Assembly: GCA_963733035.1 (NCBI GenBank)
Contig: CAVTBU010000005.1
Coordinates: 2,432,001-2,496,000 of the forward strand
DNA length: 64,000 nt
Reading direction: 5' to 3'
DNA from: Pirellulales bacterium
GTDB lineage: Bacteria > Planctomycetota > Planctomycetia > Pirellulales > PALSA-1355
The notes below the pieces were generated by a model. The model was not told the DNA's origin. It saw nothing but the letters and a program-made list of their open reading frames with translations, and did no database searches. Each line of letters opens with the position of its first letter. The first letter of the stretch is position 1. The translations under genes were made by a program, and so were the position numbers. Shown one piece after another: positions 41,888-55,662 of this stretch.

Positions 41888-42093
41888 ATGTGGCGGCGTG
41901 GCGAAAAACCAGCCCGCCGCTCGCGACGGATCGGCGGCGCCCGCGGCAATGCCGCACGGGTGGCAAAGTCTACCTAAAGTCCGCCCCCAACTTTTCTTGC
42001 ACTTCGCCCGCCAAGCGGCTACCTTGGAGGGGCCCGCCGGGCTTGATGTGGCCCGCCTTGCCTGCCTGCTTTTTCGCCGCGAAGGTGCGATTG

Positions 42094-43557
42094 ATGAGCA
42101 CTCGGTATCACACGATTCCCCAGCACTTGCGTCTCCATCGCCGTGCGGCCATTCAGGCCGGGGCGGTCGGACTTTTGGGGCTGGGGATGAATCACGTGGA
42201 CGGGCTGCGAGCGCTCGCCGCCACGACGGACCGGGCGGGTTCGAGCGATCCCAAGGCCAAGAACGTCATTTACATCTTCCTGTCGGGCGGATTGGCACAG
42301 CACGACAGCTTCGACATGAAGCCCGGCGCTCCCGAGGGGATTCGCGGCGAGTTCCATCCGGCCGCCACGCGCACTCCGGGCTTGCAGATTTGCGAGCACC
42401 TGCCGATGCTGGCCGAGCGGAGCAACCTGTGGTCGCTGGTGCGCTCAATGCATCACGGCCAGCCGGAGCACTCGGCCGGCCACCTGCTGATGCTCACCGG
42501 GCGGAACAAACTCCCCATCGGATTCAACCCCTCGAAGCCGAAACCCACCGACTGGCCCTCGATGGCGGCGATTGCCAACGCCATCTGCAAGCCGCGCAAC
42601 AACGTGCCACCGTCGGTCGTGCTTCCCGAGGTGTTGATTCATCGCGAGGGGCGGGTCATCCCCGGCCAGTTTGCCGGCGAGATGGGCTCGCAGCGTGACC
42701 CGATGTTCATCAGCTACGCCCGTTTCAGTAGCACGGCCTACGGTGCCTGGCCCGAGTATGGGTTTCACCATGCCCACGGGCGCGAGAATCCAAAGGATAT
42801 GGCCTTCGAGGCGCCGAATCTTTCGCTGCAGGCCGACATGGACCCGCGGCGGTTCGATCGGCGATTGCAACTGCTCGACACGATCGGTGAGCAAGCCGAA
42901 GAGCTCGAGCGCGCGGCCGAGAACGAGGCGTTCGATCGCGAGCGACAGAAAGCAATCTCACTGCTGGCCGACAAGAAAACGCAGGCCGCCTTTCGCATCG
43001 ACAACGCCAATCCGAAAACGCTCGATCGCTACGGGCGGAACACCTTCGGCTGGTCGCTGTTGATCGCGCGGCAGCTCGTCGAAGCGGGCGTACGCATGGT
43101 GCAAGTGAACCTGGGAAACGACGAAACCTGGGACACGCACGGCAACATCTTTCCTTCCCTGAAAGACTTCCTCTTTCCGCCGACGGATCGAGCCGTGTCC
43201 GCGCTGCTCGACGATTTGCAAGACCGGGGATTGTTGGATTCGACCTTGATCGTGATGGCCGGTGAAATGGGAAGAACCCCCAAGATCTCGCATCTGCCGG
43301 CGCACTACGCCCTGCCGGGCCGCGACCACTGGGGCACGCAAACCGTGTGGCTGGCCGGCGGCGGCGTGCAAGGCGGACGCGTGATCGGCGCCACCGACAA
43401 GATCGGCGCCCTGCCGGCTGCCAATCCGCAAACGCCCGAGAACATGGCCGCCACGATTTACCAGGCCCTGGGCATCCCGCGCGAGCTCGCCTGGCACGAC
43501 CACACGAACCGCCCCCACTTCGTGTATTTCGCCGACCCGATCCCGGGTTTGACCTAA
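42094..43557 (+). CDS. DUF1501 domain protein
   Basis: RRAAIQAG Tat-like leader, IFLSGG, DSFDMKP, ARQLVEAGV, WDTH, GEMGRTP and GRDHW. Confidence 0.93.
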   Translation: MSTRYHTIPQHLRLHRRAAIQAGAVGLLGLGMNHVDGLRALAATTDRAGSSDPKAKNVIYIFLSGGLAQHDSFDMKPGAPEGIRGEFHPAATRTPGLQICEHLPMLAERSNLWSLVRSMHHGQPEHSAGHLLMLTGRNKLPIGFNPSKPKPTDWPSMAAIANAICKPRNNVPPSVVLPEVLIHREGRVIPGQFAGEMGSQRDPMFISYARFSSTAYGAWPEYGFHHAHGRENPKDMAFEAPNLSLQADMDPRRFDRRLQLLDTIGEQAEELERAAENEAFDRERQKAISLLADKKTQAAFRIDNANPKTLDRYGRNTFGWSLLIARQLVEAGVRMVQVNLGNDETWDTHGNIFPSLKDFLFPPTDRAVSALLDDLQDRGLLDSTLIVMAGEMGRTPKISHLPAHYALPGRDHWGTQTVWLAGGGVQGGRVIGATDKIGALPAANPQTPENMAATIYQALGIPRELAWHDHTNRPHFVYFADPIPGLT

Positions 43558-44489: not shown

Positions 44490-44565
44490 GAGGTGACTCC
44501 TCGTTAATTCAACGTTTCAGGGTGCATGCCGCAGATCCCCCCGCCAAAGCCGGGGGCTGACGTGA

Positions 44566-45557
44566 TTACGACAACCCTCCGGTTTCGAGTCCGGCGGCCA
44601 GCAGCAGGGCCCGCTTCACCGAGACTTTGGCCAATTGAACTTTGTACTCGTTGTGCGACAGCGGCGTGGCCACGCTCACGGCGGCCTGGCCGGCGGCTTC
44701 GGCCGTTTCGTGCGTGACGGGACGGCCGACAATCGTTTCGGCCGCTTCGCGCGAAATCCAGGGCGTCGGCGCCACCTGGCCGAGCACAACGCGGGCTTCG
44801 CGAACCACGCCCCGCTCGACAAGGATCGAAGCCGCCGCGGCCACCAGCGGATACTCGGGACCGACGCCGTGACGTACCTCGTACGACGCGCTGGTGCGCC
44901 CCTCGGGATGCGGCAAAACGATCTGCGAGACGAACTGGTTCGGCTCCAGCATGTGTTCGCGCTCGCGCTCGCTCTTGGGCGTGCGGTAGAACACCTCGAG
45001 CGGCATCAGCGTTTCGTCGGCCGGATTGGGACCCACGATCTTCACCCGGGCATCGAGCGCGACCAGTGCCGGCGCCAGCGCGAGGGACAGACGAACTTTG
45101 CCGCTCCGGCGTTGCCAAAGATGGCATGGAAGCGGTTGTCCCCCTCGACCACCGCCCGACCGCGGTCGGCCAGCAGTCCGCCGTTGTCGCGGAAGAACCA
45201 GCAGCGCGGCCGCTGGCAAAGTTCGCCCCCCAGGGTGCTTTGCGAACGCAGTTGCTGGCTGGCAATCTCGCCGATGGCCTGGCGAATGGACGGGTAGAAC
45301 TCAGACACTGGATTGTCGGCCAGGTCCTCAAGCGTGACCATCGCGCCGATGCGGACGGCCACCGAGTCGGCTTCGATCGTCTTGAGCGAGTCGACGCGAT
45401 TCAAGCTGACCACGCGATCGGGTGTGACGATCATTTTCTTCATTAAACCGATCAGGTCGGTTCCGCCAGCCAGAACTTCGCTCCGGCCGCGTTCGGCCGC
45501 GAGCAATTCCAGGGCTTCCTGCTCGGTACGGGGCGACGCATATTCAAAGGCTTTCAT
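44566..45557 (-). CDS. Xanthine dehydrogenase-family FAD-binding subunit, PaoB/YagS-like (frameshift near 45080)
   Basis: MKAFEYASP, AGGTDL and TLGGELCQRPRC, then LAPALVALDA...VLGQVAPTPW...NEYK. Confidence 0.88.
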
Positions 45558-47761
45558 CAGGCATTCCTCGCTTGCAATTGCAATGTGTCCAGAACCCGCT
45601 TGGGTGTCATCGGCAACACCGGCACCCGAATGCCCAGGGCATTGGCCACGGCATTCGAAATCGCCGCGCCGGGGCTGATTACCGGCGGCTCGCCCAAGCC
45701 GATTACGCCGCGTTCGCGCTCGCTCTCGGGCTCATAGATTTCCACCACGAGCTCGCCGACGTCACCCAACCGCGGCAAGCGGTAGTCGGCGATTTCGGCA
45801 TTGAGGAACGCGCCGGAGCGGGGATCCATGATCCGTTCCTCGAACAGTGAGTAGGCGATGCCCATGATCATGGCACCGTAGATCTGGCTCGACGCCGTCT
45901 TGCGGTTGACCACCAGGCCCATGTCCTGCACGGCGACGAACTTCTTCATCTTGATCTGGCCGGTCTCACGGTCGACCTCGACTTCAGCCATTTGCACGCC
46001 CGCGACGCCCGAGCTCGAAAGCTTCGAGTTCCGACCCGGCTGGCCGCGGCCGGTGACTTCCAACGGGCTCATGCCCAACAGGCTGCAAGCTTCTTTCCAG
46101 CTCAACCCCTTATCGGGATCGTCCTTGACGAAGATGCGGCCCCCCTTGGCAACCAGCGATTCGGCCGGCACGCCCAGCTTCGAGGCCACCTTTTCGTTCA
46201 GTTGGGCCAGCGCGTCGAGCCCCGTGCGGCGATTCGACTCGCTGACGCCGCCAACCGTGGTGCTGCCGCCCGAGGGTCCGGAGGCCGGGTACTTCGAGCT
46301 GCCAATGTTGACTTTGATGGCCTCGACCGGCAGGCCAAATGTTTCGGCCAGCACGATGGCAATCACGGTGCGGGTGCCGGTGCCGAGGTCCTGGCTGCCC
46401 AGGAACGTTTCGACGCCGCCGTCGGGATGGATCTTCACCATACAGGTCGACGGATGTCCGCCGCCGCCCCACGTGTGGATGGCCATACCCAGTCCATCGA
46501 CGACCGAGCCGCGTTTGTCGCCCTTGCCGTGGGGATGCCATTTAGCTTTCCAGTCCATCAGCTTGGCAGCGATTTTCATCTCCTCGGCATAGACCTTGCG
46601 CCGATCCTCGTCTTCGACGTTGACCAGGTTCCGCTCGAAGACGTCATAGCTATCCAAGCCGAGCTTGGCCGCGACGTCGTCGATCGACGTTTGGGTCATG
46701 GCACACCCTTGCGGATGGTTCGGAGCCCGCCAGGCCCGCACCGGTGCCGTGTTGATCTTCACGTTCGTACCGCGACGACGATAGTTGGGAGGAACGATCA
46801 CGTACGGGATCACCGACTGGTTAACCGGCGCGCCGCCGAATCCGCCGGCACTCCAGAAGTGGGTATCCCAGACCTTGATCACGCCATCCTTGTCGGCGCC
46901 CACCTTTGACAGGGCGTAGCCCGAGGGACGCGAACCGGCGTTCTTCAGTTCCAGGTCGCGATCGAGCATCAGTTTGACCGGTCGGCCCAGTTCCTTCGAG
47001 AGCTGCGCGGCCAGCGAATCCCAGCGGTCCACGGCAAACTTGCTGCCGAAGCCTCCGCCGATGTAGTCGCAGTGCACGGTGACGTCGTCGGCCGTCACCT
47101 TGAGCGGCGCGGCGAACTGGCCGGGCGTGCCCGAGACGTTTTGCGTCGAGAGGTGGGCGGTGAGCTTGCCGTCTTTAAAATCGCAGGTCGAGCCGTGCGG
47201 TTCGAGGCACATGTGCGTGATGGCCGAGATGCCATAGAGGCCCTCGACCACGGCCGCCGATTCCTTGAACAGCCGCTCCAGTTCCTTGTCCTCAAAATCG
47301 TTTTCCTCGTCATCGCCGGGCTCGCGCTCGAGCTGCACCTTGCCGCCGGCCTTGGCCGTGCGGCCGGCCGCTTCGGCGGCTTCGAGGTCGTCGTCCGCGA
47401 CAAACACGTCCAGCGGCTCATAGGTCGCGGCAACGGCCGCCAGGCCTTCGGCCACGGCGCCTTCGGTTTCGCCAACCACGACGGCGATCAGATCGCCCTG
47501 CCACTGGATTTCATCGCCGACCTTCTTCATTTCGCGCACGGCCACCACGCCGGACACCTGCTCGGCCTTGCTGAGATCCAGCGACTTGATCTTGCAGTGA
47601 GCGTGGGGGCAACCCAGCGCGCGGCCGATCAGCACTTTGTCGGGGTTGATGTCGTAGCTGTATTTGGCGGTGCCGGTGCACTTGGCGACGCCGTCGATCT
47701 TGTCGAAGCTGCCACCGAGTACCGAGGAGTCCTTTTTATCGGGCCACACGTATTCAACCAT
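45557..47761 (-). CDS. Xanthine dehydrogenase-family molybdopterin-binding subunit
   Basis: DGVAKCTGTAKY, LEPH, STQ, GGGFGSK, WRAP, DLGTG, SGGS and GLGEPP (catalytic Glu). Confidence 0.93.
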   Translation of the reverse strand: MVEYVWPDKKDSSVLGGSFDKIDGVAKCTGTAKYSYDINPDKVLIGRALGCPHAHCKIKSLDLSKAEQVSGVVAVREMKKVGDEIQWQGDLIAVVVGETEGAVAEGLAAVAATYEPLDVFVADDDLEAAEAAGRTAKAGGKVQLEREPGDDEENDFEDKELERLFKESAAVVEGLYGISAITHMCLEPHGSTCDFKDGKLTAHLSTQNVSGTPGQFAAPLKVTADDVTVHCDYIGGGFGSKFAVDRWDSLAAQLSKELGRPVKLMLDRDLELKNAGSRPSGYALSKVGADKDGVIKVWDTHFWSAGGFGGAPVNQSVIPYVIVPPNYRRRGTNVKINTAPVRAWRAPNHPQGCAMTQTSIDDVAAKLGLDSYDVFERNLVNVEDEDRRKVYAEEMKIAAKLMDWKAKWHPHGKGDKRGSVVDGLGMAIHTWGGGGHPSTCMVKIHPDGGVETFLGSQDLGTGTRTVIAIVLAETFGLPVEAIKVNIGSSKYPASGPSGGSTTVGGVSESNRRTGLDALAQLNEKVASKLGVPAESLVAKGGRIFVKDDPDKGLSWKEACSLLGMSPLEVTGRGQPGRNSKLSSSGVAGVQMAEVEVDRETGQIKMKKFVAVQDMGLVVNRKTASSQIYGAMIMGIAYSLFEERIMDPRSGAFLNAEIADYRLPRLGDVGELVVEIYEPESERERGVIGLGEPPVISPGAAISNAVANALGIRVPVLPMTPKRVLDTLQLQARNA

Positions 47762-48374
47762 TGCCGCCTCCTTTCACCACGTCGAGGACCGCCGGAATGA
47801 TGTTGGCGTAGGTGCCGCAGCGACACAGGTTGCCATTCAAGCCTGCACGAATTTCTTCTTCGGTTGCCTTGGGATGCCTGGCCAGGAATGCCTTGACCGC
47901 CATCACGAACCCCGGCGTGCAAAAACCGCACTGCGAAGCATCGTGATGTACGAACGACTCGGGCACCGGATCGACCTTGTCGCCAGAGAGCAGGCTCTCG
48001 ACCGTCACGATCTGTTTGCCGACACAGTCCATCGCCAGCACGCTGTTGGCGCTGACCGGCTTGTTGTCGACCAGTACGGTGCTGCCGCCGCTGGAACCGT
48101 CGACGCTGATCGGCTTGGCACCGGTCAGGTTCAGGCCATAGCGGAGGGCTTCGAGCAGCGTCGAGCGCGGCTCGACTTCGACCTTGTGCGGCTTGCCGTT
48201 GACGTTGAGCGTAATCGTGGTCGCGTCGGCGACCAGCGTCGCGCCTTGCGCTTCGGCTTCGAGCCCCGGTGCGCCGGCGATCGCCGTGGCGGCAGCGGCA
48301 GCTCCGGAGCCCTTCAAAAATGCGCGGCGGCTAAAACCGGATTTGCCGTGCGCCGGATGCTCGGGCATACTCAT
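47754..48374 (-). CDS. Tat-exported [2Fe-2S] small subunit with degenerate N-terminal cluster
   Basis: SRRAFLK Tat signal, TLLEALR, and intact QCGFCTPG and NLCRC. The first cluster motif reads SVDGSSGGST...AN. Confidence 0.92.
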   Translation of the reverse strand: MSMPEHPAHGKSGFSRRAFLKGSGAAAAATAIAGAPGLEAEAQGATLVADATTITLNVNGKPHKVEVEPRSTLLEALRYGLNLTGAKPISVDGSSGGSTVLVDNKPVSANSVLAMDCVGKQIVTVESLLSGDKVDPVPESFVHHDASQCGFCTPGFVMAVKAFLARHPKATEEEIRAGLNGNLCRCGTYANIIPAVLDVVKGGGNG

Positions 48375-48615
48375 GCGAGAGACCCCCTTGCGAATGATTG
48401 GGGATGAGAAACGGTAATTTGCGTGGAGTTTTCGGACCAAAAGTCCAGCAGTGTTATAAGGCCGCACAGAGCGCGAATCAAGCGCGCGACCGCGAGACGA
48501 ACGGATTCTTGGCCGGAACTGCCCCGCCGCTGGCGATCGCTAGACAAGGCGGCGAAAAAACGAGTGATTATGGACCGGCTGGGGGCAAGATTCGTTCGCG
48601 CGATCGCGCAGGCCG

Positions 48616-49151
48616 TCAAGGCTCGAAAACTTCCTCGACTGGCCGCTCGCGGAGCCGCGTTTCGCCCTGGCAGCACTCACAGGGCTTGAGAATGTACATC
48701 GGAATGGCACAAATGTCGCACCAATAGTCGACTTCCACCAGACCCTTCTCGGTCGGTCGGCGAATCCGAATCACTTGGATCAGCGGCACCTTGGCATACC
48801 GCCGCACCAGCAGTTCGACTTCCATGCCGCGCAACCGCTCGTCGACGACGAACAGCGCCCCCGCGTGTCGGGCACCAGCGGCCAAAGCCGGCCGTCGGCC
48901 ATCTCCAACACCACCTGTGTATGCGCGGCGTCGGGCTCGGTGGTAATGCCATAGAGTCGCTCGAGCGCCTCGTCGAGCCATACCACCTTGCCGCGCAGCG
49001 ACTCGGTCTGGTACTCGGGCTCCGCGTTCGGCGACGCGACTTGGTTCGCGTCTGGCTTCTCCGGCAGCGGCGTTTTGTCAGCCGCCACGCAAGGCAGGTC
49101 GATCAACGATAAGGCGAGCAGGAACATCACAATCAGAAATGCCGATCTCAT
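48616..49151 (-). CDS. Secreted hypothetical protein with C-terminal CxxC...CxCC motif (frameshift in G5 run near 48860)
   Basis: Signal peptide MRSAFLIV..., then LRGKVVW...DTRG, shifting to ALFVVDERL...YWCDICAIPMYILKPCECCQG. Confidence 0.75.
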
Positions 49152-49341
49152 CGGGTGCCATGCTTGCGCTTCGCAAGCATGCGGCCAGCGCGGCTCTGAG
49201 ACCGCGTTTGAATCTCGGTTGAGTTTCGTCGACATCAACATCAATCTTGTCACGCGTACCTATCGGAATGCTTGCGAAGCGCAAACATGACACCCGGCGC
49301 AACGCCGCTCAAATACTAGCGATGGATCTCAGCCCCGCGAT

Positions 49342-51123: not shown

Positions 51124-51792
51124 CTAGTACGAAAAGCTCGCCAGAAACGCGCTGCGCGTGCCGGGGTTCGACCACTTGGTTCCCAGCGCCGGGCCGTTGA
51201 AATTGCCCACTTCCGTGTAGGCCGGCGTGGCGTTTTTCACTTCGTTGAGCGGCGGGTAGAACGTCACCTCGTTCGAGCAGACGCAGTCCCCCTTCTTTAG
51301 CTGACGGGTCGTGATCTCGGCCAGCTTGCCGGCCTTGAGCATGCCCACCGCGGCGAAGTGGTCGGCCGTCATCTCGATCGGTGCCGAGACGACCTTCACG
51401 ATCTTGCCCGAGTGCTTGGCATAGCGCGAGGCGAACGCCACCAGCGCATCATGCTGCTCGGGAGTCGCCTTGCGGTCGACAATCACCAGCGAGCGGATGT
51501 TTTGCGGGTTGATCTTCAGCGTGCCGCCGAAGCCCAGGGTGTCGGTGGCCGTGGTGACGACGACGACTTTCAGGCCGGCCAGTTCCACGCCGTCATAGCT
51601 GCCGCGCTCGATGTTCCAGGCCATCATCGCATCGTTGCCCGACAGGCCCACCTGGCCGTTGGCAAAGCAGGGGCCGGTATAGACGTCGCAAGTGCGGGTT
51701 TCCAGATAGTCTCCCTTGAGGCCATCGGCTGACGAAACCGGAGCATGAGCCAGCGCGGCCAGGGCGCACACGGTGCTAAGAAAGCGAAGCAT
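51124..51792 (-). CDS. Secreted DUF1326-domain protein
   Basis: RBS AAGGAG, signal peptide, GDYLETRTCDVYTGPCFANG and DCVCSNE. Confidence 0.82.
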   Translation of the reverse strand: MLRFLSTVCALAALAHAPVSSADGLKGDYLETRTCDVYTGPCFANGQVGLSGNDAMMAWNIERGSYDGVELAGLKVVVVTTATDTLGFGGTLKINPQNIRSLVIVDRKATPEQHDALVAFASRYAKHSGKIVKVVSAPIEMTADHFAAVGMLKAGKLAEITTRQLKKGDCVCSNEVTFYPPLNEVKNATPAYTEVGNFNGPALGTKWSNPGTRSAFLASFSY

Positions 51793-52056
51793 GGCGAAAG
51801 AACTCCTTAAGGCTTGGATCGCTGGGGCGCTCGGCTCGACGGCGAGCCGGATCGCGGCGGTTGCAAGTAGCATTTTAGGAGTGCCCGGCGGCAGGGTCCA
51901 GTTCGTTGAGATCCGTCCGACATTCCCAAAGAAACGGCCGGCTCAGCCGGCAGCAACACAATCACCACCATTTTTCTTGCTTCGCACCCTAATTAATTAC
52001 TAGAATGCCCCTTATTATCGGATACCATTTGCCCCCTCTGTGGAATGGTATGGATC

Positions 52057-55000
52057 ATGTCACTCAATCCTCGCCAGGTTGTCGGACGCCTACGCCGCTT
52101 TCGATTCCACCGCGCGTCGTTCGAGCCACTTGAAGCACGACAACTGCTGACCGCTTCACCCGTTCTGTTGGCGGATCTGGGTGGTCCCGGGTCGTCGGGG
52201 CCAAGCAACCTGGCTGACGTTGGCGGCGTCACCTATTTCCAGGCCGACGACGGAATTCATGGCGCCGAGCTGTGGCGCAGCGACGGGACCGCCGCGGGCA
52301 CCTACCTGGCGCGCGACATTGATCCCGGCAGCTGGGGATCAAAGCCCGGGGAGCTGGTCAACGTCGACGGAACGCTCTATTTTGCCGCCACGACGCACGA
52401 CCTGGGCACCGAACTTTGGAAAAGCGACGGCACGACCGAGGGGACCGTGCCGGTTGCGGACATCGTGCCGGGCGTGGCCGGGTCCAGCCCGCGCAATTTG
52501 ACGGCTGTCGGAAACGTTCTGTTCTTTGAGGCCGGCGACGCAAGCAACGACTGGGAATTGTGGCGGAGCGATGGCTCGGCCGCAGGCACCTATCGGGTGA
52601 AGGACCTGAACACCAACGGCAGTTCCTTTCCGGGCCATTTCACGAACGTCAACGGGGTGCTGTTCTTCGAGGCCTCGGACGGGTTTTTCGGCCGCGATCT
52701 CTGGAAGAGCGATGGGACCGCCGCCGGCACCGTTGTCGTGGGCAACGCCTCTAACTACAAGAACCAACGGCCACTGTTCCTCACCAACGTCGATGGCACT
52801 TTGTACTTTACGGCCTATAGCAACGACTCCACCCGCAGGCTGTGGACCAGCGATGGCACGAGCGCCGGCACACACAGCATTTCGGCGTATGCGTACCCGA
52901 CCAACCTGACGAACTTCGCCGGCGCGCTCTACTTCGGAATCGCCTCAACGCTCTATCGCGCCAACAGCCCCACAGACATTCAACAAATCGCCGAGTTGAA
53001 TCCGGGCATTGGCAGCAGCGCCTTCGCCAGTTTGACGCCCGTTGGAAACCAGCTCTTTTTCGCGGGAGCCACAACCGCCGATGGCAAGGAGCTGTGGGTT
53101 ACCGACGGCACCACGCCCGGCACGCACATGGTGGCAGATCTGGTGCCCGGACCAGACGGCGTGCTGCCTAACAATCTGGCGGCGGTTGGCGACACGTTGT
53201 ATTTCACCATCTCCGACAGTTACGAGTCGCTTGGCGGCAGCGAGCTTTGGAAGAGCGACGGAACGGCTCTCGGGACCGTGCGCGTCAAGGATATCTGGCC
53301 CGGGCCCGACGGCGCAGGTCCCAACAACCTGACAAACGTGGGCGGAACGCTGTTCTTCTCGGCACTCGACGTGGCGAGCGGCCGCGAACTTTGGACGAGC
53401 GATGGTACCGAGCTCGGCACCGCACAGGTGCTGGATATCAACCAACAACCCAGCGCCGATTCTTCGCCTCAGTCGTTCACGGCGGCCGGCGCGATCACCT
53501 ACTTCGTGGCCACGTCCCTCGAATTTGGAGCCGAGCTGTGGAAAACCGATGGAACCACCGCCGGCACGGTAATGGTCAAGGATATTCGTCCCGGCCGAGA
53601 CAGTTCGGGCGCCGCAAGGTTGACTGCCGTCGACGGAACCTTGTTCTTCTTCGCAAACGACGGTAGCGGCTACGCCTTGTGGCGCAGTGACGGCACCGAT
53701 GAAGGCACCCAGCCCGTTCCCTACGATTGGACATCCGCGTTTGATCCCACGACCGCGCTCGTCAATGCGAACGGCACGCTTTACTTTGGGCTGCGGGATG
53801 AAAACGCCGACTATCGTCTCTGGACCAGCGACGGGACGGCCACCGGCACGCACGTTGTCGCGGGAACGCAGCCACTGGTGCCGTGGACCAACTCGCAAAC
53901 CACTTGGGCGAACCATCTCGTCAACATCGGCAGCGACCTCTACTACGTCGCCGTCAATGCCAACGACAATCTCAGGCAGGAGCTGTGGAAGTACGACATC
54001 GTGAGCGCGACCGAGCAGAAGCTGGCGGACTTGTCGGAGGTGCAAACCCAGTATGCGGAATACAACCTGGTCAACGTATCAGGAACCTTGTTCTTTAGCG
54101 TTCGGTCGGCCAGCGGAGCATACAACCTCTGGAAGACCGATGGCACGCCCGAGGGCACGCAGGCTCTGTCCGACATTGCGATGTGGCAAGGGGCAACGCC
54201 GGCCAACGTCAATGGACGGCTTTTCTTCGCCGCCAGCGATGCCGACTCCGGCGTGGAACTCTGGACCAGCGACGGCACGCCCGAGGGCACCGTACGCGTG
54301 GACGACCTGGTGCCCGGCAGCGGCAGTGTCTATCCCGGCGGACTCACGGCGGTCGGCGACACGCTGTTCTTCGTATCGCGCGAGCCTCCTGGATCGGGAA
54401 GCCCCTTGTGGAAGAGCAACGGGACGGCCGCCGGCACCATGCGCGTCAACGCGCCAGACATCTACAATATGACAGGGCTGACGAACGTAAGCGGCGCTCT
54501 GTACTTCCTGGCGCAGCGGTCTGGCGCTCTCGATGAACTTTGGACCAGCGATGGAACGAGCGCCGGCACCGGGCAGGTTGGCACGGTTCAGCCAACTTCT
54601 AGCTCAAGCCTGGCCAATGTTAATGGCATGTTGTTCTTCGCCGGAAATGACGGCGTGCACGGCGCCGAGCCGTTCATCGTCGCACCGCCGGTGGTAGCGC
54701 GGCTGTTCTACAACAACTCTTCATTTGACGGAAACACACCCGCCGCCGGCGCCAGTGACGACGCCGCGCTGGCGATCGACAAGCTCCCCTACCTGCCCGG
54801 CTCGGGGCGGGCGGGCACGAACAACGTCTCCAGCTACTACCAAGGCATCAACGGACTTTTTGTCGACCTGGCTGGCCCGCACGGAGAAATCACCGCGGAT
54901 GACTTTACCTTCAAGATCGGCAACAGCAACGCCCCCGATACGTGGATCGCAGCTCCGTCGCCGGTCTCGATCGCGGTTCGTCCCGGTGCCGGCGTGGCCG

Positions 55001-55662
55001 GCAGTGATCGCGTGGAATTGATTTGGGCCGACGGCGCGATCCAGAACATCTGGCTGCAAGTCACCGTGCGCGGCAACGACGCGGCCGGCGGTTTCGATAC
55101 CAACACCGGGCTGGCGGCGAGCGACGTGTTCTACTTTGGCAACCGGATTGGCGATACGTTCGTTGCCACGCCCGACGCCGTTCTTGTAACCAACGCCGGC
55201 GACGAAGTCGGAGCGCGAACGCATTTGGGCTTCATGCAGCCCATCACCAACGTCTATGACTTCAACAAGGACGGACAGGTCAACGCCAGCGACATGATTA
55301 TTGCCCGGCTCAATACGGGTTACTTGTATCGCATCGAACTCCCCAACCCGACACCGCTTGTCCAGGCCGCGGCGGTGACGGCAGACAGCGGAACGTCGCA
55401 GATTGCCTTTGCCCTGGCCGCGCGGGATCATGCCGTCGGTCAACAGAATTCCAAAGCTGGCGATGAACGCCTGATGCAGCTCGGGTTGTGTGATTTCTTG
55501 GCCGCTACGCGTAGCCAGCGCTCATTCGCCGCGATGGCGCCCGCAAGGCTTTGGCTCGCGTCACTCGCCGACCTCTCTCAAGATGCCGGGGAACTATCGG
55601 GTACGAGCGAGGAGTTGGACGACTGGCTCTTGGAATCCATCGCCGTCGGACCAGTCGAATAG
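52057..55662 (+). CDS. LEPR-XLL extracellular protein with ELWxxDGT repeats and C-terminal dockerin-like module
   Basis: FEPLEARQLLT, about 16 ELWxSDGT-type repeats, and FYNNS...DFNKDGQVNASD. Confidence 0.92.
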   Translation: MSLNPRQVVGRLRRFRFHRASFEPLEARQLLTASPVLLADLGGPGSSGPSNLADVGGVTYFQADDGIHGAELWRSDGTAAGTYLARDIDPGSWGSKPGELVNVDGTLYFAATTHDLGTELWKSDGTTEGTVPVADIVPGVAGSSPRNLTAVGNVLFFEAGDASNDWELWRSDGSAAGTYRVKDLNTNGSSFPGHFTNVNGVLFFEASDGFFGRDLWKSDGTAAGTVVVGNASNYKNQRPLFLTNVDGTLYFTAYSNDSTRRLWTSDGTSAGTHSISAYAYPTNLTNFAGALYFGIASTLYRANSPTDIQQIAELNPGIGSSAFASLTPVGNQLFFAGATTADGKELWVTDGTTPGTHMVADLVPGPDGVLPNNLAAVGDTLYFTISDSYESLGGSELWKSDGTALGTVRVKDIWPGPDGAGPNNLTNVGGTLFFSALDVASGRELWTSDGTELGTAQVLDINQQPSADSSPQSFTAAGAITYFVATSLEFGAELWKTDGTTAGTVMVKDIRPGRDSSGAARLTAVDGTLFFFANDGSGYALWRSDGTDEGTQPVPYDWTSAFDPTTALVNANGTLYFGLRDENADYRLWTSDGTATGTHVVAGTQPLVPWTNSQTTWANHLVNIGSDLYYVAVNANDNLRQELWKYDIVSATEQKLADLSEVQTQYAEYNLVNVSGTLFFSVRSASGAYNLWKTDGTPEGTQALSDIAMWQGATPANVNGRLFFAASDADSGVELWTSDGTPEGTVRVDDLVPGSGSVYPGGLTAVGDTLFFVSREPPGSGSPLWKSNGTAAGTMRVNAPDIYNMTGLTNVSGALYFLAQRSGALDELWTSDGTSAGTGQVGTVQPTSSSSLANVNGMLFFAGNDGVHGAEPFIVAPPVVARLFYNNSSFDGNTPAAGASDDAALAIDKLPYLPGSGRAGTNNVSSYYQGINGLFVDLAGPHGEITADDFTFKIGNSNAPDTWIAAPSPVSIAVRPGAGVAGSDRVELIWADGAIQNIWLQVTVRGNDAAGGFDTNTGLAASDVFYFGNRIGDTFVATPDAVLVTNAGDEVGARTHLGFMQPITNVYDFNKDGQVNASDMIIARLNTGYLYRIELPNPTPLVQAAAVTADSGTSQIAFALAARDHAVGQQNSKAGDERLMQLGLCDFLAATRSQRSFAAMAPARLWLASLADLSQDAGELSGTSEELDDWLLESIAVGPVE

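Follow-up and report, generated by a model that had tools for sequence, protein, structure and literature searches.

Can a molybdenum hydroxylase of the xanthine oxidase family dispense with the iron-sulfur cluster that bridges its neighboring redox centers, and where would its electrons then go? The question is raised by a 64,000-nucleotide stretch of DNA from a Pirellulales bacterium (contig CAVTBU010000005.1; hereafter the window, whose own coordinates are used throughout), which encodes on its minus strand a small iron-sulfur subunit (S), a molybdenum subunit (L), and a flavin adenine dinucleotide (FAD) subunit (M). Reviews treat two [2Fe-2S] clusters, FeSI and FeSII, as a fixed feature of the family (accessible sections of PMC3958847). 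In S, all four Cys ligands of FeSII, the cluster that bridges FeSI and FAD, are replaced, and those of FeSI are intact. We hold with high confidence that this is a true, ancient, and selected loss in an enzyme that still works.

Replacement of the FeSII ligands

Residues 90–110 of S read SVDGSSGGSTVLVDNKPVSAN and map exactly onto positions 48045–48107 of the minus strand. In HMMER alignments the four FeSII Cys columns of PaoA (5G5G chain A), of 5Y6Q chain A, and of CutS stand, gap-free, opposite S90, S95, S98, and N110, whose codons are AGC, AGC, AGC, and AAC. An initial annotation of the window, made from the letters alone, had read the motif C-x4-C-x2-C-x11-C as replaced by S/S/S/N at exact spacing and with AGC codons for the three Ser residues; translation, alignments, and codons all agree with it. 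The same annotation had described the FeSI motif and the catalytic Glu of the molybdenum subunit as intact, and both are: C149, C152, C184, and C186 are all present, and Glu691 of L aligns with the Glu of PaoC. The only other Cys in S, C117, is unconserved in the ortholog alignment, so that S has no alternative Cys to offer. Each of the other two small-subunit paralogs of this genome retains the full eight Cys.

Domain matches follow the same division of the protein. The C-terminal half of S is matched by Fer2_2 at 2.2e-27, and Pfam also finds the TAT_signal (twin-arginine translocation, TAT) family; there is no Pfam match of the Fer2 domain on S. The best NCBIfam match of S is PaoA (144.9 bits, below the cut-off of 322), and the best solved structures are 5g5g_A and 5y6q_A, the PaoA structure matching at 2.1e-34. 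L passes the cut-offs of PF01315, PF02738, and PF20256, that is, an a/b-hammerhead and two molybdenum-cofactor (MoCo) binding domains; its best NCBIfam match is PaoC (315.9 bits, below the cut-off of 1180), and 5g5h_C is the solved structure that fits it best (E 8e-69 over residues 13–727). By sequence, then, the enzyme would belong to the heterotrimeric xanthine oxidase or molybdenum hydroxylase type, from which it departs in the FeSII ligands.

An AlphaFold2 model of S, built from an 84-row alignment, has a mean predicted local distance difference test score (pLDDT) of 84.6 and reaches 86–98 over residues 51–200. When the whole mature model is placed on solved small subunits with Foldseek, the best match is 5y6q_A (E 2.9e-17, template modelling score TMt 0.93, root mean square deviation 1.8 Å). 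The model shows that the fold can accommodate this sequence, which does not by itself establish the shape of the loop without a cluster; since the alignment contains Cys-bearing homologs, the prediction is also biased toward the canonical fold.

Conservation of the loss among homologs

The best 120 homologs returned by a word-indexed search are 69%–99% identical to S. Cys is absent from all four FeSII positions in 118 of them (SSSN in 101, SSSS in 8, STSG in 6, and SSST in 3), and the other two (P0115 and P0122) retain the first FeSII Cys alone. The FeSI Cys are complete in 120 out of 120 (118 by pattern, with P0065 and P0081 read directly). Together with the structural model, these counts bear out the view of the initial annotation that the protein gave up FeSII but not its fold. 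Where the sources of these homologs are named, they are Planctomycetota or Pirellulales; the protein names found there, "(2Fe-2S)-binding protein" and "YagT iron-sulfur-binding subunit", overstate the cluster content of these proteins.

Of 40 genomes from the same order, 21 have an ortholog of S at 63%–85% identity; a clear gap separates these from the paralogs that come next, at no more than 46%. Close orthologs that all keep Cys would have pointed to recent decay in the window; instead, all 21 orthologous loci lack the four FeSII Cys. The loop around the former site, TGAKP[IV]SxDGSSG[GA]STV, hardly varies across the 118 anchored homologs, all 118 of which have D92 and G96. Among the orthologs, the fourth former ligand position varies (N, S, or A). 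An exhaustive HMMER search across the wider family puts the change far outside what chance would give: Among the best 150 representatives of 50%-identity clusters, 131 have all four FeSII Cys, three are fragments, and 16 lack the full set (nine of the Ser type, three with one Cys, two of the Asp type, and two unclear).

The substitutions are also present in an independent copy of the gene. A short-read contig from a public metagenome run (X2 record 13, 1521 bases; protein P0003, 99% identical) carries the same loop, and the same state is found in the orthologs, so that the initial annotation was right to think indel-type sequencing errors unlikely as the source of the four changes. As far as can be judged from these comparisons, the loss of FeSII is neither decay nor sequencing error.

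Order and number of the losses

We placed these loci on a tree of the molybdenum subunit (IQ-TREE, LG+G4, quick search, 66 rows), leaving out loci in which L is frameshifted, split, or shorter than 650 amino acids (L039, L048, L053, L055, L063, L133, and L140). The 20 Ser-type rows, which their sources place in the order Pirellulales, form one clade with a Shimodaira-Hasegawa approximate likelihood ratio test (SH-aLRT) value of 100. The sister group of this Ser clade is a clade of 13 Planctomycetaceae rows; Acidobacteriota enzymes are in turn the sister group of both, with deeper rows beyond.

The deeper rows differ from all of these in a loop of M. There the loop reads C...C...C(...C) and corresponds by homology to one with four Cys in PaoB, 5Y6Q chain B, and HcrB; in PaoB these Cys, to judge by their conservation, are probably the ligands of a [4Fe-4S] cluster. 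In the M subunits of Acidobacteriota, Planctomycetaceae, and the Ser clade, only the first loop Cys remains. Because three of the four [4Fe-4S] Cys are missing even from the nearest relatives that still bear the FeSII Cys, the ligands of that cluster were lost before those of FeSII. All 18 Ser-type loci with an M keep the first Cys alone (CL[RKQSG]A). That Cys (within QRPRCWYFR, position 119 of alignment A3 in locus L023) is invariant in 36 of 36 sequences. In both Cys-less lineages M shows a convergent Arg-to-Asp change (PaoB position 186), which might have pointed to co-evolution with the FeSII loss; we rejected this, since the Arg is already missing from the Cys-bearing Planctomycetaceae loci L047 and L052.

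Within the Planctomycetaceae clade, ligand positions 1 and 3 are occupied by Asp or Glu in nine rows, which are interleaved with four Cys-bearing rows, and there are therefore at least four state changes on the tree overall. The interleaving would imply either several losses or exchange of small-subunit genes. Among the 120 best homologs of the L049 small subunit, about 112 show this Asp type, D/E-x4-x-x2-D. Its clade (L049 7001–7591; P0274–P0393; L130–L139) reads D/E-x4-[SATD]-x2-D in place of the FeSII Cys. On the evidence of these alignments, FeSII appears to have been dispensed with at least twice, by different replacement residues (Ser and Asp).

Selection and relative rates

Across 20 orthologs (190 pairs, Nei-Gojobori), the median ratio of nonsynonymous to synonymous substitution rates (dN/dS) is 0.29 for the N-terminal domain of S, 0.29 for the loop (residues 84–112), and 0.13 for the C-terminal FeSI domain, values that are rough because dS is near saturation for many pairs. 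By this measure the N-terminal domain is under purifying selection. The initial annotation had suggested asking whether the Cys loss defines a conserved clade under such selection, and the SH-aLRT of 100 and the dN/dS of about 0.29 indicate that it does.

Relative to L, the rates in the Ser clade are 0.97 for the N-domain, 0.76 for the C-domain, and 1.17 for M, and in the Cys-bearing sister clade 0.79, 0.91, and 1.07, respectively. The N-domain is thus modestly relaxed (0.97 vs. 0.79), and M is essentially unchanged (1.17 vs. 1.07). Fixed differences between the two clades number six in S (D75E, C90S, R92D, C95S, C98S, and G191N), of which four are in the ligand loop, against none in M and four in L.

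State of the FAD subunit

In the window, M stays in frame for about 160 residues, through the FAD_binding_5 domain (PF00941, 7.3e-28 on this first piece, from which FAD binding is predicted); the remainder, from LAPALVALDA... to GLS, continues in another frame to 44566. Relatives join the two parts in a single frame of about 330 residues that reads ...CPSRLAPAL..., and M is in one frame in 18 of the 18 related loci in which it follows L. We compared contigs of four public metagenome runs with positions 44500–49300. A contig of X3 (151 bases, otherwise identical) and a contig of X2 each have one extra base behind 45076, and X2 also has one extra base behind 48853, inside an upstream gene (48616–49253) that is split in the same way. 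Since contigs of two runs carry the missing base, the frameshift of M in the window is an assembly error, and the FAD gene is intact in nature. No RNA run turned up among the public sequencing runs listed for this DNA. This assembly looks prone to single-base insertions and deletions, and other "pseudogenes" of the genome are therefore to be distrusted. A paralog of the molybdenum subunit on contig C6 of the same genome (958314–959031) is frameshifted or split as well.

The best solved match for M is the aldehyde oxidase of Methylobacillus (5Y6Q, 2.9e-44). M keeps most of the columns that are conserved in PaoB and the deep relatives, among them AGGxDL, TxGG, and GVAPxPW.

The gene order S-L-M is contiguous in 18 out of 20 Ser-type loci. 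The other two, L040 and L042, make up a sublineage with SSAA at the former ligand positions and have a DinB-like or DUF5671 gene after L instead of M. In the genome of the first (G039; S and L on contig C154), an intact M ortholog, 57% identical, lies on another contig (C280, locus L150).

Electron path and competing readings

That the enzyme still works is argued by the constraint that persists on the molybdenum site, on FeSI, on the TAT signal, and on each of the three subunits. As the best explanation overall we favor a permanent loss of FeSII that leaves a cluster-free spacer, with electrons passing from FeSI either to FAD or to an outside acceptor; we consider it probable. The sequences show that the ligands are gone, how old and how conserved this loss is, and that the rest of the enzyme is intact; the absence of any cluster at the FeSII site, the presence of FAD, and the whole electron path are what we infer.

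The enzyme would be a TAT-exported, three-subunit molybdenum hydroxylase related to PaoABC, with the gene order S-L-M. In a first step, before the split from the Acidobacteriota enzymes, M gave up the ligands of the PaoB/HcrB-type [4Fe-4S] cluster; in a second, FeSII was lost at the base of a large Pirellulales clade by Cys-to-Ser changes and, separately, by Cys-to-Asp changes in the Planctomycetaceae. The N-terminal ferredoxin-like domain would remain as a cluster-free spacer that holds M against L, the isosteric Ser residues and the new invariant Asp binding the old ligand loops together. Substrate oxidation at the molybdenum would reduce FeSI, whose electrons would most likely cross about 20 Å to FAD in one slow tunnelling step, or else go to an outside periplasmic acceptor. 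The length of the gap is one that we take from the geometry of bovine xanthine dehydrogenase, presumably about 12 Å from FeSI to FeSII and about 8 Å from FeSII to FAD. Over this gap the Moser-Dutton rule would, by our own estimate, give roughly 10–200 per second. That FAD is still the electron exit is plausible, though our confidence in it falls somewhat short of even. We are more doubtful that the enzyme is a natural molybdenum hydroxylase with a gapped wire, whether crossed in a single jump of about 20 Å or with its pocket refitted for another ion or cofactor.

Several points weigh against permanent loss with a mere spacer, beside the bias of the structural model and the roughness of the dN/dS values given above. 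A gap of about 20 Å exceeds the usual limit of 14 Å for physiological electron transfer. Ser is more constant than expected of a residue without a task: Among the 118 anchored homologs it occupies position 1 in 116 and position 2 in 112, and among the 20 orthologs it fills the three former ligand positions in 20, 20, and 18, always with AGY codons. The constraint on Ser and on the invariant Asp92 exceeds the needs of mere filler and could reflect a newly bound ion. Finally, no M ortholog was found in the second SSAA genome (G082, locus L042) with the query used, and a FAD gene that is unlinked or unfound in this sublineage weakens the view that FAD is always needed.

The initial annotation took the loss to imply some other electron exit or a non-redox role, and the latter could mean that no wire is needed at all: The chemistry would be redox-neutral or contained at the molybdenum, with FeSI kept as a structural or tuning cluster, like the [4Fe-4S] cluster of acetylene hydratase in the dimethyl sulfoxide (DMSO) reductase family, and M as a scaffold. 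The stepwise loss of the distal centers, first [4Fe-4S] and then FeSII, would suit such an enzyme, as would the SSAA loci without a linked or detectable FAD gene and the case of Escherichia coli XdhD, which lacks the ligands of both clusters. However, the rate of M, measured against L, is no higher than in the sister enzymes that bear Cys, and M keeps the motifs of its FAD domain; nor has the enzyme lost its catalytic Glu or any FeSI ligand. We know of no redox-neutral member of the xanthine oxidase family, and we give this reading little credence.

We also think it improbable that the former FeSII pocket now binds a structural divalent cation (Ca, Mg, or Zn) or a redox center other than an iron-sulfur cluster. 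The ligands would be Ser hydroxyls and Asp92 and, in the second lineage, the two conserved Asp or Glu at positions 1 and 3. The near-invariance of the loop and of D92 and G96 is what a binding site would lead one to expect; the change R92D is fixed between the clades, and an independent lineage has acidic residues at the same positions, for example in D-x4-[SATD]-x2-D. On the other hand, the two lineages took chemically different residues, Ser and Asp, positions three and four vary (SSAA, STSG, and CSAN forms), and Ser is simply isosteric with Cys. To our knowledge an all-oxygen-ligated [2Fe-2S] cluster is without precedent.

A decaying or nonfunctional operon, or substitutions that are sequencing errors, we hold to be barely credible and, as far as sequence can refute it, already refuted: The frameshifts that suggest it (in M, in the upstream gene at 48616–49253, and in the C6 paralog) are set against the missing bases found in contigs of other runs (behind 45076 in X2 and X3, behind 48853 in X2), the single frame of M wherever it lies downstream in the 18 related loci, the same Ser codons in 20 of 20 orthologs, dN/dS well below 1, and a state common to 118 of 120 homologs.

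Neighboring genes

The features discussed here are listed in Table 1. Along the operon, the start of M shares one base, at 45557, with the stop of L. The single XdhC_CoxI-family gene of the genome, of the chaperone type that serves MoCo maturation, lies outside the operon, on another contig (C8).

Table 1. Features of the S-L-M locus and its neighbors in the window
Feature	Position	Strand	Basis or remarks
Small subunit S, 206 aa	47754..48374	-	TAT signal, N-terminal ferredoxin-like domain (predicted cluster-free), and C-terminal [2Fe-2S] (FeSI) domain
Twin-arginine motif SRRAFLK, residues 15–21 of S	48312..48332	-	PF10518 and TIGR01409 matches
Former FeSII site, S90/S95/S98/N110 replacing C-x4-C-x2-C-x11-C	48045..48107	-	Translation and alignment
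FeSI ligands C149, C152, C184, C186, intact (QCGFC...LCRCG)	47814..47933	-	Invariant columns of small-subunit alignment A1
Molybdenum subunit L, 734 aa; start overlaps end of S by 8 bases	45557..47761	-	Pfam Ald_Xan_dh_C, MoCoBD_1, MoCoBD_2
Codon of Glu691 in GLGEPP of L	45689..45691	-	Aligned with Glu of PaoC GVGELG motif
FAD subunit M, ~330 aa, split by one lost base near 45076–45078	44566..45557	-	FAD_binding_5 and relatives
Small secreted protein upstream of S, frameshifted in the window	48616-49253	-	C terminus DYWCD[IV]CAI[PS]M...KPCECCQG strictly conserved
Secreted DUF1326 protein, neighbor of S-L-M	51124..51873	-	Pfam DUF1326 at 1.5e-13

The small secreted protein has no Pfam or NCBIfam match. 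Its Cys-rich C terminus (CxxC...CxCC) may bind a metal, and we considered it as a replacement electron carrier. It occurs in 12 loci, all of the window's own family (L023–L027, L030, L033–L036, L039, and the window itself), and since the other Ser-type families are without it, it cannot explain the Ser clade; we therefore rejected it in this role.

The association with the DUF1326 protein is wider. Its gene adjoins S-L-M in nine of the 18 Ser-type loci L023–L040 and in 14 of the 34 loci L041–L074 (L045, L048, L050, L051, L057, L058, L060, L061, L066–L068, L070, L072, and L074), and the adjacency spans Planctomycetota, Acidobacteriota, and Armatimonadota. A single Cys of the protein is invariant, and Y, E, R, and W residues are conserved. 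The only hits of its AlphaFold model (pLDDT 85), and weak ones, are acetoacetate decarboxylase-like proteins (E 8e-4, TM 0.34), and an Atlas search returned DUF1326 clusters only. It may act in the same pathway as the enzyme; a complex prediction for S (residues 46–206) and M of the same-genus locus L023 with the DUF1326 partner scored 0.00, which weighs neither way. A DUF1501 protein and a 1205-residue open reading frame without a Pfam match also lie nearby, at 41890–43557 (+) and 52045–55662 (+).

Comparison with known systems

The closest characterized relative by profile is PaoABC of E. coli (5G5G/5G5H), likewise a heterotrimer of iron-sulfur, FAD, and molybdenum subunits with a TAT signal on the small subunit and with the same insertion loop, QRxRCxYF, in the FAD subunit. 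It differs in that PaoA has all eight Cys and PaoB the four loop Cys for [4Fe-4S], and in its gene order, paoA-B-C-D in E. coli against S-L-M here without an XdhC-type gene in the operon; both NCBIfam equivalog scores also fall well short (144.9 vs. 322 and 315.9 vs. 1180 bits). The physiological electron acceptor of PaoABC is unknown too (accessible sections of PMC3958847). The aldehyde oxidase of Methylobacillus sp. KY4400 (5Y6Q), the best solved match for M and the best structural match for S, has four FeSII Cys in its small subunit and four loop Cys in its medium subunit, unlike the enzyme described here. All three subunits are related to those of 4-hydroxybenzoyl-CoA reductase (1RM6) as well, whose extra [4Fe-4S] loop is homologous to the degenerate loop of M; that enzyme is complete in its clusters, and electrons flow through it in the inverse direction (according to a title cited in PMC3958847).

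Loss of cluster ligands is not unique within the family, since E. coli K-12 XdhD lacks all eight Cys: Residues 1–178 (L126 9317–9850) contain no Cys at all, although the record calls the protein "Fe-S binding subunit". Li et al. 2025 (PMC12507026) show urate reduction with NADH by the purified XdhD-YgfM complex, and the accessible text of that paper uses neither the word 2Fe-2S nor the word cysteine. XdhD-YgfM resembles the enzyme here in belonging to the same family, in having ferredoxin-like domains without cluster ligands, and in keeping the FAD subunit. In contrast, XdhD is fused and cytoplasmic, has lost the ligands of both clusters, and is 25% identical over the S region, whereas here S and L are separate genes, FeSI is strictly kept, and the product is a secreted heterotrimer. 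TIGR03313, the model of the XdhD type, has a cut-off of 1101.9 bits and scores far lower here, at 24.9 for S and 147.7 for L.

We found no description of a family member without FeSII in the full-text literature, a coverage outside which most subscription journals lie. The novelty lies in the loss of the bridging cluster alone, with FeSI strictly kept, its stepwise history, and a second, chemically different parallel loss. A large, conserved clade, widespread in the environment (soil and water Planctomycetes), breaks the two-cluster rule in that the bridge is gone and both of its neighbors stay. With its Cys-bearing sisters (Acidobacteriota and some Planctomycetaceae) and the deeper relatives of the [4Fe-4S] type, it forms a comparative series in which one can ask how much wire is needed, whether secreted enzymes shed exposed iron-sulfur clusters, and what the acceptors of PaoABC-like enzymes are. 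If the wire is indeed gapped, electron-transfer theory would gain a natural series of three, two, and one iron-sulfur centers in enzymes that are otherwise similar.

A shortened wire as such has a precedent in the family in the MOP protein of Desulfovibrio gigas (1SIJ/1VLB), which has no FAD domain (accessible sections of PMC3958847). The two enzymes are shortened at different points: MOP keeps both [2Fe-2S] clusters and drops FAD, whereas the enzyme of the window keeps its FAD subunit and drops the cluster that bridges FeSI and FAD.

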